The notes below the pieces were generated by a model. The model did no database searches and was not told the origin of the DNA. It was given only the letters and a program-made list of their open reading frames with translations. A stretch of 64,000 nt of DNA from Patescibacteria group bacterium (GTDB taxonomy: Bacteria; Patescibacteriota; Patescibacteriia; UBA9934), in the NCBI GenBank assembly GCA_041660165.1, contig JBAZWW010000006.1, positions 10,337 through 74,336 of the forward strand. The letters are read 5' to 3'. Numbering within the stretch: position 1 is the stretch's first letter; every line of letters begins with the position of its first letter. Of the stretch, positions 14,234 through 46,708 are shown in pieces. The position numbers were made by a program, and so were the translations under genes.

Positions 14234-14243
14234 AATCCGGTTC

Positions 14244-14267
14244 CCATCCCGACGTGAGGAGGGATAG
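14244..14267. repeat. Family-1 hairpin element (CCATCCC-GACGTGAGGA-GGGATAG), 11 nt upstream of the GT4 start on the minus strand
   Basis: Identical 25-mer also present at 45131-45155. Confidence 0.6.
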
Positions 14268-32166: not shown

Positions 32167-32174
32167 ATAAGTTT

Positions 32175-32247
32175 CCCATCCCGAGCCATGCGAGGGATCC
32201 GACTCTCACATGTGAGGGGCGGATCCTTCGCTCTCGCTCAGGATGGG
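32175..32247. repeat. Family-2 ~73-nt palindromic element, inverted relative to the 31248 copy
   Basis: The reverse complement is ~90% identical to the 31248-31319 element; lies 8 nt upstream of the C39-like gene start. Confidence 0.65.
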
Positions 32248-34585: not shown

Positions 34586-34694
34586 AGCCTCCTTGTTATT
34601 AAACGGGGACAAAGAAAATTTCGTCCCTGAAGAATGTTGATTACCGCGAAAGTATATCATAGCTCTTAGCGCTCATTATACACGCCCTCTGCTC

Positions 34695-34718
34695 CCACCC
34701 CGACGTGAGGAGGGGTAG
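34695..34718. repeat. Family-1 hairpin element (ACCCC-GACGTGAGGA-GGGGT)
   Basis: ~110 nt upstream of the small membrane protein start; followed by a perfect TATAAT. Confidence 0.55.
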
Positions 34719-34741: not shown

Positions 34742-35572
34742 TTAGGCGATACTCTTTTTTGTTGGCTGTTTCAAAAAGTTTTGCTTTGACACAATCGGCC
34801 GGCCAAGTTTTTTCTCAAGTTGTTTTCTTGCACCGCCGGCAATTGTGCCACCGGCTCTGGCGTCGGCTTTGAGTTTCTTTACGCCTTTCGAATTCTCGTT
34901 GCGATGGATCTCCGTAGTCGAACGCTCACCGAGCATGTTAAAGATGAGCTCGAAATCATCCATATGATCGCGCAGATTCTCGCGTTTCAAGCCCTTGAGC
35001 TTTTTGTACTCAGTTGGCGTAACCCCAAAAGTGGCTTTAGAGATTTCTGCCGTCAAAATCTCATAATCGCCACTTTCTTTGGCCCCGCGATTTTTCCATT
35101 CGTCCGTAAGCTCTTCGCGGATGACGATTCCGCGCATGCGCTTCTCAATCCAGTCTTCGTTGTATCCCTTCAGCTTGTAGAGTATGCGGGTACGCTTTGT
35201 TGCGAGTTCGGGATTCTCGATCTCCTGCACACGCTCAAATCCAACCTTGGCAAGCCAACGCTTGAAGGGTTCTGCTTTAGGAGAAGGAACAGATTGAATT
35301 ATGCGAAACATGCCCTCAATATCAGCACAATCCGTCTCTCGCATCTTCCCGTCCGGAGCTTCCAATTTCAACTGGTGACATTTTGTCACCACTTCACTTC
35401 CCTCTTCTCGTAGCCGTTGAGATAACTTATTCCAATATTTTCTCGCCACATAATCATCCTCCTGGTCAATGAGCGCCCGAATAACATCCACCACCGAAAA
35501 CCACCACTCACCATTGACAAGTGCCTTGCGTATCTCCTTACCCTTGAACAATGCAATGTGGTTGTTCGTCAT
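34742..35572 (-). CDS. DinD-like DNA-damage-inducible protein (N-terminal Bro-N domain)
   Basis: 276 aa; Bro-N signature LFKGKEIRKALVNGEWWFSVVDVIRAL; C-terminal half parallels E. coli DinD (GLKRENLRDHMDDFELIFNMLGERSTTEI...). Confidence 0.65.
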   Translation of the reverse strand: MTNNHIALFKGKEIRKALVNGEWWFSVVDVIRALIDQEDDYVARKYWNKLSQRLREEGSEVVTKCHQLKLEAPDGKMRETDCADIEGMFRIIQSVPSPKAEPFKRWLAKVGFERVQEIENPELATKRTRILYKLKGYNEDWIEKRMRGIVIREELTDEWKNRGAKESGDYEILTAEISKATFGVTPTEYKKLKGLKRENLRDHMDDFELIFNMLGERSTTEIHRNENSKGVKKLKADARAGGTIAGGARKQLEKKLGRPIVSKQNFLKQPTKKSIA

Positions 35573-35581
35573 ATGTTCGTA

Positions 35582-40467: not shown

Positions 40468-40531
40468 AGCGCCCCGCCTCTCACCGGTCGATACCGGAAC
40501 GGAGAGATGCCCGGGGCGTTTGTTGTTTTAT
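40468..40531. repeat. 64-bp direct repeat copy 2 (terminator), shared convergently with hicA
   Basis: Identical to 39366-39429; ends at the hicA stop codon. Confidence 0.85.
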
Positions 40532-40758
40532 AACAGCTTTATAAACTCCTCACGGCTCAAACCTGCTTGGACCATAATTGATGCAACCACATCTCCGGGT
40601 AAATCAAACTTTGTATGAAAAGGAATCGTTACTCGAAGGGCGGATTTTGAAGAATGGCGAAGTTGGACATGGCTTCCCTTCTGATGATGGATGACGAACC
40701 CGGCGCGGAGCAGGGCTTGCAATACTTTTTTCGGCTTCAAGGACGGCAGCTTGCTCAT
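40528..40758 (-). CDS. hicA: HicA-family mRNA interferase toxin
   Basis: From the internal Met: MSKLPSLKPKKVLQALLRAGFVIHHQKGSHVQLRH... (YcfA/HicA fold with the GSH motif). The N-terminal 47 aa of the track ORF are probably not translated. Confidence 0.7.
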   Translation of the reverse strand: MSKLPSLKPKKVLQALLRAGFVIHHQKGSHVQLRHSSKSALRVTIPFHTKFDLPGDVVASIMVQAGLSREEFIKLL

Positions 40759-40762
40759 ATCA

Positions 40763-41011
40763 CTAGACTGCAACAAGCATCTCTTCATGAATGAACGAGC
40801 GAGACGGGTGGAGCGTTTGCTTATCTTTACGTAAACCCTCAAGATGGCACGCAATCGCCTCATGAGCCATGTCACGAGCCTCTTCAAACGTTCGACCAAA
40901 AGTCACTACTCCTGGCAACGAGGGAGCCGTTACCTGATAACCCCCGCGCACTTTTTCATAAAGCACGGTCACCGCAAATTCTTCTGTGGTTGTAACCGGT
41001 TTAGACTTCAT
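40763..41011 (-). CDS. hicB: HicB-family antitoxin (UPF0150)
   Basis: 82 aa; YQVTAPSLPGVVTFGRTFEEARDMAHEAIACHLEGL matches the HicB RNase-H-like fold; 4-nt gap to hicA. Confidence 0.7.
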   Translation of the reverse strand: MKSKPVTTTEEFAVTVLYEKVRGGYQVTAPSLPGVVTFGRTFEEARDMAHEAIACHLEGLRKDKQTLHPSRSFIHEEMLVAV

Positions 41012-42733: not shown

Positions 42734-42901
42734 TTATCCCCACCTCGATAACGAATCGCTTAAAACCATGTTGCAATAGAAGGGTCAGAAATAGCAAACT
42801 CCCCATTTAGTTGGCGGAGTTTTTGTTTGTTTTATTCGATAAAAGGAGGCCTATGTAGAAAACTATCCGTGAGCTATACTTTATTCAGTAATACCTTTCG
42901 T
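42734..42901. repeat. ~165-bp direct repeat copy 1 (promoter/leader region of a small-protein gene)
   Basis: ~90% identical to 43723-43889 (TTATCCCCACCTCG...ACCATGTTGCAATAGAAGGGTCAGAAATA...TTTTGTTTGTTTTATTCG.TAAAAGGAGGCCTATGTA...). Confidence 0.8.
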
Positions 42902-43108
42902 ATGGATAAACAGGAATTTACACAGATACTCACCCAGGCTCTCTCCGACCAATCTCGCGATCTGCGCGAGTACACTGATCAGCGCGTCTCTGCTTCGGAA
43001 AGACGAATCCTTGATGGCGTGGGCGAAATGTTCGATGGCCTGAGTCCGCAGTTCAACAATCACGAGCGCCGAATTCTAAAACTTGAGAAACTCGTCCACG
43101 CCACATAA
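42902..43108 (+). CDS. Small conserved hypothetical protein, paralog 1 (68 aa)
   Basis: C-terminal 38 aa nearly identical to the paralog at 43890-44153 (DQSRDLREYTD...GVGEMFDGLSPQFNNHERRILKLEKLVHA). Confidence 0.6.
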   Translation: MDKQEFTQILTQALSDQSRDLREYTDQRVSASERRILDGVGEMFDGLSPQFNNHERRILKLEKLVHAT

Positions 43109-43119
43109 TGCCCCACAAA

Positions 43120-43150
43120 AATCCCGCCGTGAGGCGGGGTTTTGTTATTT
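43120..43150. terminator. Bidirectional intrinsic terminator (CCCGCCGTGAGGCGGGG + TTTTGTTATTT)
   Basis: Between the convergent small gene and lipoprotein gene. Confidence 0.7.
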
Positions 43151-43675
43151 CGCCTTGAACGAAGCGAAGATTTGATCAATGTCCTTCATCTGCTCCACAT
43201 ACTTGTCCTGCCGACCGTCATAAATGTAGGACCAAGGACCGGTTTTCGCCACGACGCCTCCGTAGAAAGCGCTCGTCGCATTACTGCCGAGGAGTTTCTC
43301 TGTTGGGTACTTGGCCATCTTTGACTGGTCTTTCAAGTCGATCGACATGATGGCAAACAAGTACAACAAGTCCTCGCCCTTTGGTTCGTAATAAAATGCG
43401 CGGGATTTTCCAGGCACGTCATAGGCCAAAAATTCTTCCTTTGGCCCATAGCCGTCAAAGTCCTCAAAGTTCTTAATCCCCATCCAACGTTCCGGAAATG
43501 AAAACGAATAGCGAGGATCCTCCGTAAACTCGAAGGTCAAAACCTTGCTCGGTGGTGTCTCAATGACAACGTCAGGAACAGTGTAGTTCGAAGCCGGCGC
43601 TGGAATGGTCGAGGACTGAGCGCACCCGACGCCGAGGAGCATGAGAAGCGCGATCGACAAAAGTGATTTTTGCAT
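43145..43675 (-). CDS. Putative lipoprotein / secreted protein
   Basis: From the internal Met: MQKSLLSIALLMLLGVGCAQSS (signal peptide with Cys). The longer track ORF runs into the repeat. Confidence 0.55.
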   Translation of the reverse strand: MQKSLLSIALLMLLGVGCAQSSTIPAPASNYTVPDVVIETPPSKVLTFEFTEDPRYSFSFPERWMGIKNFEDFDGYGPKEEFLAYDVPGKSRAFYYEPKGEDLLYLFAIMSIDLKDQSKMAKYPTEKLLGSNATSAFYGGVVAKTGPWSYIYDGRQDKYVEQMKDIDQIFASFKAK

Positions 43676-43722
43676 ATGGGGAGATGGTAGCACAAAAATA
43701 GCCAGCGGACGGAGAAGTAAAC

Positions 43723-43889
43723 TTATCCCCACCTCGCCCAGCAAACACCTTAAACCATGTTGCAATAGAAGGGTCAGAAATATCAAACTCCCCATTTACT
43801 TGGCGGGGTTTTTGTTTGTTTTATTCGGTAAAAGGAGGCCTATGTAAGAAATCGTCAGTGCGTTATACTTTATTCAATAAGCATCTCAT
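43723..43889. repeat. ~165-bp direct repeat copy 2
   Basis: See copy 1. Confidence 0.8.
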
Positions 43890-44153
43890 ATGAATGAACA
43901 GATAATTCAGAAATTACTAACCCAGGCGCTTACGACCAATAACAAGGTCCTTCTTGGCCAAGTCAAGGAATATACCAATCAGGCCTTGGCCGATCAATCC
44001 CGAGATCTCCGAGAATATACCGATATGGAACTTAAAAGAACAAGGCAAGAAATCCTCGAAGGCGTAGGCGAAATGTTTGATGGCCTGAGCCCGCAGTTCA
44101 ATAACCACGAACGGAGAATTCTCAAACTAGAAAAACTTGTTCATGCATCGTAA
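43890..44153 (+). CDS. Small conserved hypothetical protein, paralog 2 (87 aa)
   Basis: Same family as 42902-43108 with a 20-aa insertion; followed by the terminator CTCCGCTCCACATGGGCGGAG + TTTTAG. Confidence 0.6.
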   Translation: MNEQIIQKLLTQALTTNNKVLLGQVKEYTNQALADQSRDLREYTDMELKRTRQEILEGVGEMFDGLSPQFNNHERRILKLEKLVHAS

Positions 44154-44210
44154 CAACCTAGCAAAACTCCGCTCCACATGGGCGGAGTTTTAGTTATCCC
44201 CATGACATTC

Positions 44211-44265
44211 TTGCGTTCGGTTTCCGTTCGGTTATGATAAGGGTAGACAAGAACAGATCGCGAAC
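44211..44265 (+). promoter_or_regulatory. lexA promoter (TTGCGT-16-TATGAT) overlapped by two direct-repeat boxes, GTTC-N7-GTTC (44215-44229) and GAAC-N7-GAAC (44251-44265): candidate LexA operators
   Basis: Motifs read from the sequence. GTTC-N7-GTTC is the alphaproteobacterial-type LexA box (established knowledge); its relevance here is inferred. Confidence 0.4.
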
Positions 44266-44292: not shown

Positions 44293-44913
44293 ATGGCTCC
44301 TCTGCCGCCACTCACTAAGAGACAGCGAGACGTGCTCGACTGTATAGAAGCCTTTGTGAGAAAGAACAGCTACACGCCGTCGTACCGAGAGATCGCCGAG
44401 AAGCTGGGTCTCTCTTCACCGGCCACTGTTCATCAGCACATTAAGGCGCTGTGTGAGAAGGGCATCATCAATACGGGCGAGCACGGGATCGCGCGCTCGA
44501 TCGAAGTCGTCGAGACAGAACTCGTCTCCCCGCTCGCCATCATGCTCCCGCTTTCAGGATTGATTACCGCGGGCGAACCGATCGAAGCGATCGAAGACAG
44601 GGAGACGATCGCCGTGCCAACAGACTTCGTGCTTGACCCAATGAATTCGTACGTGCTCAAAGTGAAAGGACGATCAATGATTGAGGACGGGATTTTTGAC
44701 GGAGACTTCGTCGTCATCGAAAGAAATCCTTCGCCGAAAAATGGAGACATTGTCGTGGCCTTACTCGACAATGCATACGCAACGCTCAAACGTTTCTACC
44801 GAGAGAAAGACCATATCCGTTTACAACCCGCCAACAGCTCAATGAAACCTTTCATTATCAAAGGGGACATCAATATCCAGGGAATAGTAAGAGCAGTGTT
44901 AAGAAAGTTCTAA
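44293..44913 (+). CDS. lexA: LexA repressor (S24 peptidase)
   Basis: 206 aa; N-terminal winged HTH (YREIAEKLGLSSPATVHQHIKAL); C-terminal S24 domain with Ser (VKGRSM) and Lys (TLKRF). Confidence 0.9.
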   Translation: MAPLPPLTKRQRDVLDCIEAFVRKNSYTPSYREIAEKLGLSSPATVHQHIKALCEKGIINTGEHGIARSIEVVETELVSPLAIMLPLSGLITAGEPIEAIEDRETIAVPTDFVLDPMNSYVLKVKGRSMIEDGIFDGDFVVIERNPSPKNGDIVVALLDNAYATLKRFYREKDHIRLQPANSSMKPFIIKGDINIQGIVRAVLRKF

Positions 44914-45130
44914 AAAACTCATATGTCAATCCTCGCCTTACGCCGCTACCAAGTGGCGCCGGATTATTGCATCTCAGTTGTGACCGTGAGGGATAAGAAA
45001 CAGCGAGTTTCAAAACTCAGAATTCACCGCCGAAGAATAAGACAAACGTTTCGAACGATCCTCGCGCAGGTTTCGCTGCCCCGATACGTCACGTTCAAGC
45101 ATAAGCTCCGATAATTCATAGCAACCAATA

Positions 45131-45154
45131 CTATCCCTCCTCACGTCGGGATGG
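45131..45154. repeat. Family-1 hairpin element (CTATCCC-TCCTCACGTC-GGGATGG), 12 nt upstream of the orfX start codon
   Basis: Reverse complement identical to 14243-14267. Confidence 0.6.
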
Positions 45155-45411
45155 GAATAAATCCTATGCACGAATACGTGAATGATCCGATTGATGTGTC
45201 CGTGGATTTTGCGGGACGGAAGGTACGGCCCAATAAGGTTCGCTGGGGGCAACGGGATTACTTGATCAATAAGATCAATTTAGTTCACGGCGCCAGAGAG
45301 GGAGCCAAGCGAATCTTTTACTTCTCGGTCTCGGACGCCGCGAACTTTATGAAATTACGGCTTGATACGGAAACGCTTGAGTGGAGGCTGGTCGAGGTTT
45401 ATTCGTCCTGA
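45151..45411 (+). CDS. Hypothetical 86-aa protein, translationally coupled to dinB (orfX)
   Basis: Stop TGA overlaps/abuts the dinB start (TGATATG); no domain recognised. Confidence 0.45.
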   Translation: MGINPMHEYVNDPIDVSVDFAGRKVRPNKVRWGQRDYLINKINLVHGAREGAKRIFYFSVSDAANFMKLRLDTETLEWRLVEVYSS

Positions 45412-45412
45412 T

Positions 45413-46708
45413 ATGCCCATCATCCTGCACATCGACTTCAACTCATTCTTTGCGTCAGTCGAACAGCAGGCGAATCCCTTTCTTAGAGGAAAAGCAATCG
45501 CTGTAGCGGGTAAGGGCCGAGAGACCATCGACCCCCTCCCGGCCTCCCCCTTGGAAAGGTGGAGGGGCCATACTGAACGAGTCGACATCGGCAAACTTCA
45601 GTTTGCTAGATCTGTAGTCACTACTGCCTCACGCGAGGCGAAGAAGCGCGGGGTAAAAACCGCCATGGCCACGTGGGAAGCCAGGAAACTGGTACCCGAT
45701 TTACTCATCATCCCCGGAGATCCGCACAAATACAGCGAAATCACCGCCCGGATGATGGCCATTCTTCGCAGATACGGTGACGCGGTAGAACAGTTCAGTG
45801 CGGATGAAGCCTTTGCGGACATCACCTGCGCCTCAGGCGGAGATTATTTTGGCGCAGCTCTTTTAGCCGAACGCATTCGCGCGGATGTGCGCGCAGAATG
45901 CGGAGAGTGGTGCACCGCCTCACTCGGAGTCGCGCCAAACCGCCTTGTAGCAAAACTGGCAAGCGAATCTCAGAAGCCGGACGGACTGACGATTGTCCCG
46001 CCGGATGACGTGCTTTCTTTTATTGACTCTCGACCGCTCGCTGATTTCTGCGGTATCGGCCCGCGCATCGAACAGAGGCTCGCGTCTCTTGGCGCAACCT
46101 CAACAAAAACTCTGCGAGAACTTCCCCGCGAAAGACTGCTCGTAGCCTTCAAAAAGAGTTACGGTGACTGGCTGTACTTCGCGGCTCGCGGTATGAGCGA
46201 CGACAGAGTGGTTGACGAAACCGAGGATCCCAAATCTGTCGGTCACTCGTACACCTTTCCGCAAAGTCTAGAAACCGAAAATGACGTTCGCCGTCACCTC
46301 CTTGGTCTGGCCGATCGCGTCTCTTGGCGGATGCGAAAACAGGGACTCGCCGGAACGCACATCAGCGTCTATGTCCGCTATGACGACATGGACAGTGTGG
46401 GGCTCGGCAAAAAATATAAAGAGCCAATGTTTGATGGCTTAACGATTACAAAAACGGCGCTCGCCCTTCTTCTCCCTCGGCTATCCCTCCCACGAGGGAT
46501 CCGTCTCCTTGGCGTCTCAGTATCCGGCCTCGTGAAACTTCCTGGAGCGAATCCGCTTTTGCGAGCTGAGGCAAGAAACCAAAGCGCGCTCCGGTCGCTC
46601 GACAAAATCTCCGAGAGATATGGCAACGGGACATGGCAACGCTTGAGTACGCTTGGCGTCATCTTTAAGGAGCGGACAAGCGGATGGCATTATGACCATG
46701 AAGTTTAA
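45413..46708 (+). CDS. dinB: DNA polymerase IV (Y-family)
   Basis: MPIILHIDFNSFFASVEQ (DxD motif), SADEAFADIT, thumb/little-finger region; ~25-aa insertion after AVAGKG relative to canonical DinB. Confidence 0.85.
   Translation: MPIILHIDFNSFFASVEQQANPFLRGKAIAVAGKGRETIDPLPASPLERWRGHTERVDIGKLQFARSVVTTASREAKKRGVKTAMATWEARKLVPDLLIIPGDPHKYSEITARMMAILRRYGDAVEQFSADEAFADITCASGGDYFGAALLAERIRADVRAECGEWCTASLGVAPNRLVAKLASESQKPDGLTIVPPDDVLSFIDSRPLADFCGIGPRIEQRLASLGATSTKTLRELPRERLLVAFKKSYGDWLYFAARGMSDDRVVDETEDPKSVGHSYTFPQSLETENDVRRHLLGLADRVSWRMRKQGLAGTHISVYVRYDDMDSVGLGKKYKEPMFDGLTITKTALALLLPRLSLPRGIRLLGVSVSGLVKLPGANPLLRAEARNQSALRSLDKISERYGNGTWQRLSTLGVIFKERTSGWHYDHEV

Follow-up and report, generated by a model that had tools for sequence, protein, structure and literature searches.

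In a 64,000-nt stretch of DNA from a Patescibacteria group bacterium (GCA_041660165.1, contig JBAZWW010000006.1, positions 10,337-74,336, forward strand; hereafter the window), two direct repeats lie upstream of lexA, each leading into a small open reading frame (ORF). We give an even chance to the reading that each repeat is a complete, ancient expression module for a Patescibacteria-specific small helical protein. The proposed module begins with a TTATCC(C/A)CA box, which would be bound by a regulator common to the lexA promoter, DnaA being the obvious candidate. After 29-30 nt comes a promoter-like TG-N-TGCAAT element (candidate promoter P1), and after a further 18 nt a 9-bp bulged hairpin with a U-run, which would work as an intrinsic terminator on the + strand. 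The gene's own TATAAT-like -10 box (promoter P2) follows, then a leader of ~14 nt devoid of a ribosome-binding site (RBS), the ORF and the ORF's own terminator. Transcription fired from the upstream element would yield an RNA of ~45-50 nt halting at the hairpin, possibly a small RNA; alternatively, the hairpin may form a built-in insulator that keeps transcription from outside and from P1 off P2.

Leader core and hairpin

The gene order in this region is DEAD-box helicase, unit 1, a lipoprotein-like gene on the minus strand, unit 2 and lexA. The direct repeats (42734-42891 and 43723-43880, window coordinates on the + strand unless stated) match at 86% over 158 nt free of gaps, and the two leaders, measured from TTATCCCCA to the ATG, agree at 143/169 positions (85% global identity). 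An earlier note on this DNA had placed repeats of ~90% identity at 42734-42901 and 43723-43889; the repeats are real, and the figure comes down to ~85%. A 28-mer of the leader core has two sites in the 64 kb, both in the repeats, versus 0 expected. The ORFs that follow, of 68 aa (copy 1, 42902-43108, WC802_04690) and 87 aa (copy 2, 43890-44153, WC802_04700), are found as that note described them; both are annotated by NCBI in a Patescibacteria metagenome-assembled genome. They are 72% identical by BLASTP (E 2e-34), and the family profile matches copy 1 at E 1e-22 in an hmmsearch. A related organism, assembled independently (locus L001), has an equivalent order of units, so the two-unit locus is not an assembly artefact.

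Conservation within the leader centers on a 56-nt core running from CATGTTGCAAT to GGCGGRGTTT. All ten pairs of five close leaders are identical at 51-55 of these 56 positions (91-98%), whereas identity in the segments flanking the core is 55-83% and silent coding sites have reached saturation. Because the core outconserves both, the comparison indicates that this non-coding segment is under nucleotide-level selection, stronger than that on silent coding positions. The upstream repeat, previously taken for a promoter-leader only, also carries a deeply conserved hairpin element under this selection. The hairpin forms the 3' part of the core and consists of AAACTCCCC, a loop and GG-C-GGAGTTT, followed by the U-run TTTTTGTTTGTTTT, with 9 bp and one bulged base. 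In unit 1, the stem-loop AAACTCCCC-loop-GGCGGAGTTT spans 42796-42822 and extends with its U-run to 42836; in unit 2, it spans 43785-43811 and extends to 43825. The extended -10-like element of P1, TGTTGCAAT, lies at 42769-42777 and 43758-43766, and its general form TG-N-TG(C/G)AAT occurs in 9/9 distinct leaders.

The same hairpin, placed after TG-N-TG(C/G)AAT, also stands 5' of distant family genes at loci L006, L007, L010/L011 and L017, whose proteins are 40-47% identical to those of the window. There, the small gene is flanked by leuS and gdh (L007, L010 and L011), by gdh and an unnamed ORF that follows leuS (L006), or by a DUF218 gene and an unnamed ORF (L017). These distant lineages hold one copy of the unit in a syntenic position. 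Since the hairpin and the TG-N-TG(C/G)AAT block are single-copy in other lineages, their distribution indicates that they predate the duplication.

Across the 9 distinct sequences, 98.8% of stem cells are paired. The sole stem substitutions, A-U to G-U and U-G to U-A, keep the + strand paired but would give C-A mismatches if read from the minus strand. At the bulge there is a C, a U or no base, and the loop measures 6-9 nt. For segments that include the hairpin, the folding energy is -15 to -22 kcal/mol, with z about -2 to -5, and the RNA folds are more stable on the + strand than on the minus strand. The predicted structure, a stable stem-loop with a U-run immediately behind it, is that of an intrinsic terminator, and the hairpin most likely acts as one in + strand RNA. 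A covariance model of the element matches no site but the known leaders, both in the window and across 12 other loci. Three family loci (L013, L015 and L021) do not have the element, and at L019 it has decayed, with the 5' arm kept and the 3' arm lost.

Rfam gives no match at gathering thresholds anywhere in the window. Below threshold, the leaders show a rimP leader (E 5.6-6.2) and, on the minus strand, rnk_pseudo (E 3.2); the best such match in the region, rnk_pseudo at E 0.01, covers the 3' end and terminator of ORF 1 and no leader. Literature searches found no description of the leader element. A conserved ORF spanning the leader is rejected, as the frames differ between copies. A hairpin role on the minus strand is likewise rejected: it could provide a gdh terminator in the leuS-gdh lineage, but the window lineage has no need of one, and on that strand the substitutions in the stem would be mismatches. 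At the leuS-gdh loci, small ORF and gdh are convergent and share 4 nt at their 3' ends (L007 491-751/748-1953; L010 4001-4285/4282-5436; L011 3001-3252/3249-4454). The overlap leaves no room for a terminator, so that each transcript must continue into the opposite gene as antisense. For gdh transcripts of this lineage, the first structure resembling a terminator would be the leader hairpin.

Small proteins and the age of the duplication

The two proteins have the same DQSRDLREYTD block and differ at 2 of their final 33 residues, in line with the near-identical C-termini described before; the insertion in copy 2 relative to copy 1, given earlier as 20 aa, is present and comprises 19 codons. Over 29 C-terminal codons, the copies show 12 silent and 3 replacement differences (proportion of silent differences, pS, 0.64; of replacement differences, pN, 0.04). 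Copy 2 and its L001 orthologue give pS 0.67 and pN 0.01. These values indicate that the ORFs are under strong purifying selection and that silent sites are saturated.

Word-indexed searches return only five proteins as close relatives, and an exhaustive profile search recovers 77 cluster representatives at E<=1e-3, almost all of 70-110 aa. Homologues, on which the earlier note had made its claim of two genuine small ORFs depend, are thus at hand. The family-wide pattern is ...RDxxRQEIxASExR...EILxGVxExxD...PQxDxHExR(L/I)xKLE, and the members are named in their sources solely as hypothetical proteins of Patescibacteria or unclassified bacteria. The window encodes 2 members by hmmsearch with the family profile. 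Scans of the GTDB representative genomes with a protein pattern and with a DNA pattern are both without match, and a DNA-pattern scan of metagenome contigs returns only contigs of the L001 organism.

The AlphaFold model, built with 34 homologues, is one continuous helix over residues 3-86, with a mean predicted local distance difference test score (pLDDT) of 92. In the C-terminal 33 residues of copy 2, the sequence places L, V, F, L, F, H, I, L and V at a spacing of 3-4, and the conserved His of the C-terminal third lies in core register. The helical, heptad-like character proposed earlier is borne out by this unbroken predicted helix with its 3-4 hydrophobic spacing, the signature of a coiled coil. 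The small protein is likely a single long helix that forms a coiled-coil oligomer, and probably serves as an oligomeric scaffold or adaptor whose working surface would be the C-terminal PQxDxHExR(L/I)xKLE.

The absence of a known family, also proposed earlier, holds across the databases searched. The best Pfam match of the small proteins reaches 18 bits against a cut-off of 35, and for both proteins together with 50 members no Pfam, NCBIfam or PHROGs family is matched by more than 5/50. In the Protein Data Bank (PDB), the sequence-profile search yields nothing significant (best E 0.015, the influenza HA2 coiled coil), and Foldseek of the model gives zero matches. A type I toxin-antitoxin pair is rejected, as the protein is hydrophilic and helical, not a small hydrophobic toxin, and no antisense partner is identified. 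In L001 copy 1 (L001 1120-1210), the N-terminal part holds three tandem 11-residue repeats, KQGFAEQDxRI; with such repeats, the N-terminal halves of family members differ in length.

The L001 locus consists of a DEAD-box helicase gene, a leader with a 115-aa small ORF, two minus-strand genes, a leader with a 101-aa small ORF, and lexA. Its two slot genes encode a thymidylate-kinase-like P-loop protein and a membrane protein. At L003, a leader with an 82-aa small ORF is followed by a homologue of the window lipoprotein (44% identical). The positions of the units are thus conserved in these genomes, with a different gene content in the slot. Because silent sites between the copies are saturated and the layout is common to a related genome, the comparison indicates that the duplication is old, not recent.

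Two types of C-terminus can be distinguished. Type A, GVGEMFDGLSPQFNNHERRILKLEKLVHA, is carried by both window copies and by L001 copy 2, and type B, ...HPR(I/F)xDHERRLLKLEAK, by L001 copy 1 and L003. Window copy 1 joins an N-terminal half resembling type B (MDKQEFTQILTQAL...; compare MEKQEFKQML...ILTQAL of L003) to a type A C-terminal half, and by this comparison is a chimera, probably arisen through an old conversion by copy 2. The chimeric nature of copy 1 accounts for the near-identical C-terminal residues of the copies; the silent divergence shows this identity to be maintained now by selection and not by recency.

Promoter-like elements, the TTATCC(C/A)CA box and rival readings

A TAnnnT box, mostly (G/T)GTATAAT, lies 5' of the ATG in 14/15 family genes and ends 7-21 nt before it (7-12 nt in distant lineages, 20-21 nt in the window lineage). 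In the window it reads TATACT, at 42875-42880 in unit 1 and 43864-43869 in unit 2. The box is kept in the hairpin-less loci L013, L020 and L021, and in L019 with its decayed hairpin. Among window genes, 6/52 have an RBS, and TAnnnT boxes ending 5-24 nt 5' of the ATG occur in 13/33 genes versus 4.6 +/- 1.9 when positions are drawn at random; both counts suggest that this organism normally makes mRNAs with a very short leader or none. As RBSs are rare and TAnnnT boxes enriched near ATGs, a promoter-proximal start without an RBS is ordinary here, and the pattern indicates that the TAnnnT box is the small gene's own promoter, P2.

Upstream of the hairpin, L006, L007, L010 and L017 carry TTGAC(C/G) 17 nt before TG-N-TG(C/G)AAT, with variable spacers; TTGAC(C/G)-17-TG-N-TG(C/G)AAT has the usual footprint of a promoter and constitutes the candidate P1. 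A sigma-54 promoter reading of TTGCA is rejected, as no GG is seen by eye 10 nt upstream. Between hairpin and -10 box, a AAAAGGAGG-N3-ATG-stop block is conserved in the five window-lineage leaders, with ATG-TAG/TAA in 4/5 and CTG in L003. It reads AAAAGGAGG-cct-ATG-TAG at 42841-42858 in unit 1 and AAAAGGAGG-cct-ATG-TAA at 43830-43847 in unit 2; in unit 1, its TATGTA (42852-42857) stands exactly 17 nt 5' of the -10 box. The block thus presents a Shine-Dalgarno (SD)-like AAAAGGAGG, 3 nt, and an ATG with an immediate stop, a kind of motif otherwise rare in this genome, and in the alignment it falls where distant family members have their -10 box and start codon. Its reading as a start-stop mini-ORF is weakened by the CTG in L003, a frame inconsistent with the main ORF and the placement of TATGTA 17 nt before the -10 box.

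The DnaA-box consensus is TTATCCACA. The exact 9-mer TTATCCCCA, one mismatch away, occurs 3 times in the window versus 0.36 expected, always at this locus: at the two leader starts (42734-42742 and 43723-43731), each 29 nt 5' of TGCAAT, and upstream of lexA (44194-44202). The third copy stands 30 nt 5' of TATGAT in a distal lexA promoter-like site (TTGCGT 44211-44216, 16 nt, TATGAT 44233-44238); the region is identical in L001. The distance from the box to TGCAAT stays at 29-30 nt throughout the five close leaders, with varying sequence between them. L001 copy 1 and L003 have the perfect consensus TTATCCACA, and L017 and L006 have TTATCAACA and TTATAAACA, respectively, each 33 nt 5' of the hexamer. 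With up to one mismatch from the consensus allowed, TTATCCCCA, TTATCCACA and TTATCAACA count as putative DnaA boxes and TTATAAACA, with two mismatches, does not. The box may be the site of a regulator common to the small genes and lexA, with DnaA as the candidate. A replication origin at this place is rejected: the cumulative GC skew falls steadily with no switch, and DnaA-like boxes overall are at chance level.

The gene directly downstream is indeed lexA, as described before (44293-44913, with matches to LexA_DNA_bind and Peptidase_S24). In front of it lie GTTC-N7-GTTC (44215-44229) and an inverted copy (44251-44265), both also in L001. This operator type is described for Alphaproteobacteria (PMC8565304), and the two opposite boxes within 44215-44265 are candidate LexA operators of this lineage; the likeness is confined to lexA, as neither GTTC-N7-GTTC nor GAAC-N4-GTTC occurs, with up to 1 mismatch, in either small-gene leader. 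In distant relatives, the small gene lies between leuS and gdh and not beside lexA. The earlier suggestion of a link to the SOS response is reduced to adjacency and the common TTATCCCCA box.

Several observations weigh against the module as proposed. The stem has zero two-sided changes, so that covariation neither supports nor tests the structure, and a stem this invariant, atypical of a plain terminator, might instead be recognised as DNA in a sequence-specific manner. The hexamer TG(C/G)AAT has no A at position 2, which is near-universal in sigma-70 promoters, and P1 of the window lineage has no -35 element, the TTATCC(C/A)CA box being there instead. P1 may thus fail to be a promoter at all, and the hairpin would then lack any obvious source of transcription. 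The proposed module leaves the conserved AAAAGGAGG-N3-ATG-stop block without a role, and the window-type leader is found in just three organisms. The function assigned to the small protein is a guess, and gene neighbourhoods are inconsistent across the family.

The same parts could be read as an attenuator leader, which is possible though doubtful. P1 would then be the sole promoter, the hairpin a regulated terminator whose read-through sets small-protein expression, and, in the window lineage, the SD-like AAAGGAGG with ATG-stop a start-stop mini-ORF in the leader. The order of promoter-like element, hairpin with U-run and ORF in 9/9 leaders fits this arrangement, as does the retention of AAAAGGAGG-N3-ATG-TAG/TAA in 4/5 close leaders despite the rarity of SD-like motifs. 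However, the stretch between hairpin and ATG is not promoter-free, since a TATAAT-like box always stands there, in hairpin-less members as well, and L019 retains it without the 3' arm. The start-stop ATG is replaced by CTG in L003, and minimum-energy and centroid folds give only the terminator, although no systematic search for alternative pairings was made. Rather unlikely is a control region acting at the DNA level, in which AAACTCC...GGAGTTT, TGTTGCAAT and TTATCC(C/A)CA would be transcription-factor sites and the hairpin incidental. It would explain a stem invariant across lineages without compensatory changes, a box common with the lexA promoter at fixed spacing, and the non-canonical form of P1. 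The distance between the arms, however, varies by 3 nt with the 6-9-nt loop, and the bulge varies too, which would alter the phase of a dimer site and be harmless to an RNA hairpin. Both stem substitutions are wobble-compatible on one strand only, and a U-run follows the stem in every case; the one-sided wobble changes and varying arm spacing argue against a double-stranded dimer site.

The remaining readings concern the origin and regulation of the locus as a whole. The earlier note saw a recent segmental duplication that carried promoter and gene together and was inserted around the lipoprotein gene, the similarity being neutral. The direct repeats do span non-coding and coding parts, and each unit does comprise a promoter region, gene and terminator, but recency is contradicted by pS 0.64 with silent sites saturated between the copies. 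Conservation is uneven, focused in the 56-nt core and the C-terminal codons, which also contradicts neutral similarity. The related genome has the same two-unit layout with other genes between, so the insertion around a lipoprotein gene falls away and the reading becomes very improbable. Control of the small gene by the SOS response, after the manner of the lexA-adjacent division inhibitors of Gram-positive bacteria, is suggested by the 140 nt from the end of copy 2 to the start of lexA, by dinB further downstream and by the TTATCCCCA box in the lexA promoter. It is quite improbable given the leaders without either LexA-type motif, the predicted soluble helix without a membrane segment, the co-orientation with lexA across an intervening terminator, and the location of the family elsewhere between leuS and gdh or in other places. 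The lowest probability goes to the ends of a mobile or dispersed repeat (REP/MITE-like or a hairpin-end transposon) with cargo between. Hairpin-bearing direct repeats do flank a segment with genome-dependent genes, yet the 64 kb contain only two copies, the compared loci have none at other places, distant lineages are single-copy and syntenic, and no transposase or integrase lies in the unit, which largely contradicts this reading. A hairpin pattern had 8 matches in viral contigs, all unrelated generic terminators with other inner stems and without a family ORF. Nor is the repeat a generic dispersed element, an alternative raised in the earlier note, since it always accompanies the small ORF, and the leaders of this ORF are all that the covariance model finds. 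Finally, an extension of the module is conceivable and unlikely: the core would be a ~45-50-nt hairpin RNA gene or regulated terminator with an activator-dependent promoter switched by DnaA; protein, RNA and lexA would form a replication-stress module alongside the LexA response; and the repeats would bound a recombination slot for cargo exchange.

Known systems and neighbouring features

The leader hairpin resembles intrinsic terminators that precede promoters, and short terminated small-RNA genes, in its G+C-rich stem, its U-run and the separate promoter just downstream. It is also similar to bidirectional terminators, in that, in the leuS-gdh lineage, its U-run is paired with the A-rich 5' flank. 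Unlike in plain terminators, the leader stem is invariant across lineages whose proteins are ~40% identical, and ~30 nt upstream are equally conserved. As a gene-end signal, the unit 1 hairpin is redundant, because another terminator lies 65 nt upstream. Promoters with DnaA boxes are comparable in that a consensus or one-mismatch 9-mer stands at a fixed distance 5' of three neighbouring promoter-like sites; the differences are the lack of an origin context or GC-skew switch, and a commonest form here, TTATCCCCA, that is a putative box.

YneA, SosA, DivS and ChiZ, the lexA-adjacent SOS genes of Gram-positive bacteria, encode membrane proteins, are divergent from lexA and have LexA operators. 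The likeness lies in a small gene of no named family immediately beside lexA. Here, by contrast, the predicted product is an amphipathic soluble helix with no hydrophobic stretch, and the gene is co-oriented with lexA, has its own terminator and no LexA-type box, and belongs to a family in which adjacency to lexA is not conserved. ZapB is a small all-helical coiled-coil protein, and proteins of its type are matched in length (~70-110 aa), in the predicted single continuous helix and in the 3-4 hydrophobic spacing; the present family differs in having no similarity to named families and a motif of its own, PQxDxHExR(L/I)xKLE, with a His in core register.

Patescibacteria (candidate phyla radiation, CPR) have small genomes, in which much of the gene content and almost all regulation is uncharacterised. 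The locus offers a widespread unnamed small-protein family with clear purifying selection, a non-coding element of ~56-73 nt outside Rfam that is a candidate new element, and a DnaA-box-like box placed alike before the small genes and lexA. It also illustrates gene expression in this organism, with promoter-proximal starts and hardly any RBSs. If the hairpin RNA or the DnaA link is true, Patescibacteria would gain one of their first defined regulatory RNAs or circuits; if neither is, what remains is an old gene duplication of an ordinary kind.

A terminator of its own follows each ORF, as had been noted, in the form of a hairpin and a T-run. That of copy 1 (43118-43143) is bidirectional and common to the convergent lipoprotein-like gene, and that of copy 2 spans 44164-44192, with its hairpin and T-run at 44171-44188. 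The oppositely oriented gene in the slot between the units, also reported earlier, occupies 43145-43675 on the minus strand; it encodes 176 aa from MQKSLLSIALLMLLGVGC, has a lipoprotein-like N-terminus and gives no match in a Pfam search.

A HicA toxin/HicB antitoxin pair lies at 40528-41011 (-), just 5' of the DEAD-box helicase gene. On the 3' side of lexA, 44923-46708 (+) holds two unnamed ORFs, of 63 and 86 aa, together with the gene for a Y-family polymerase (IMS/DinB); lexA, the two small ORFs and the polymerase gene may form one damage-response operon. A further exact GTTC-N7-GTTC, at 35564-35578, runs across the start codon of a gene with a Bro-N domain (34742-35572) and is likewise a candidate LexA operator of this lineage. 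A second dispersed motif, AAT(A/T)CTATCCCTCCTCACGTCGGGATGGGAA, is found at 45134-45157 (+), 14241-14264 (-), 34692-34715 (-) and 32173-32184 (-). It contains a 5-bp stem, ATCCC/GGGAT, which in one copy is ACCCC/GGGGT, a compensatory change. Copies lie just 5' of a glycosyltransferase gene and a Peptidase_C39-like gene, and a third, between lexA and dinB, overlaps the ATG of the 86-aa ORF. The 24-mer occurs 3 times in the window at <=3 mismatches versus 0 expected.

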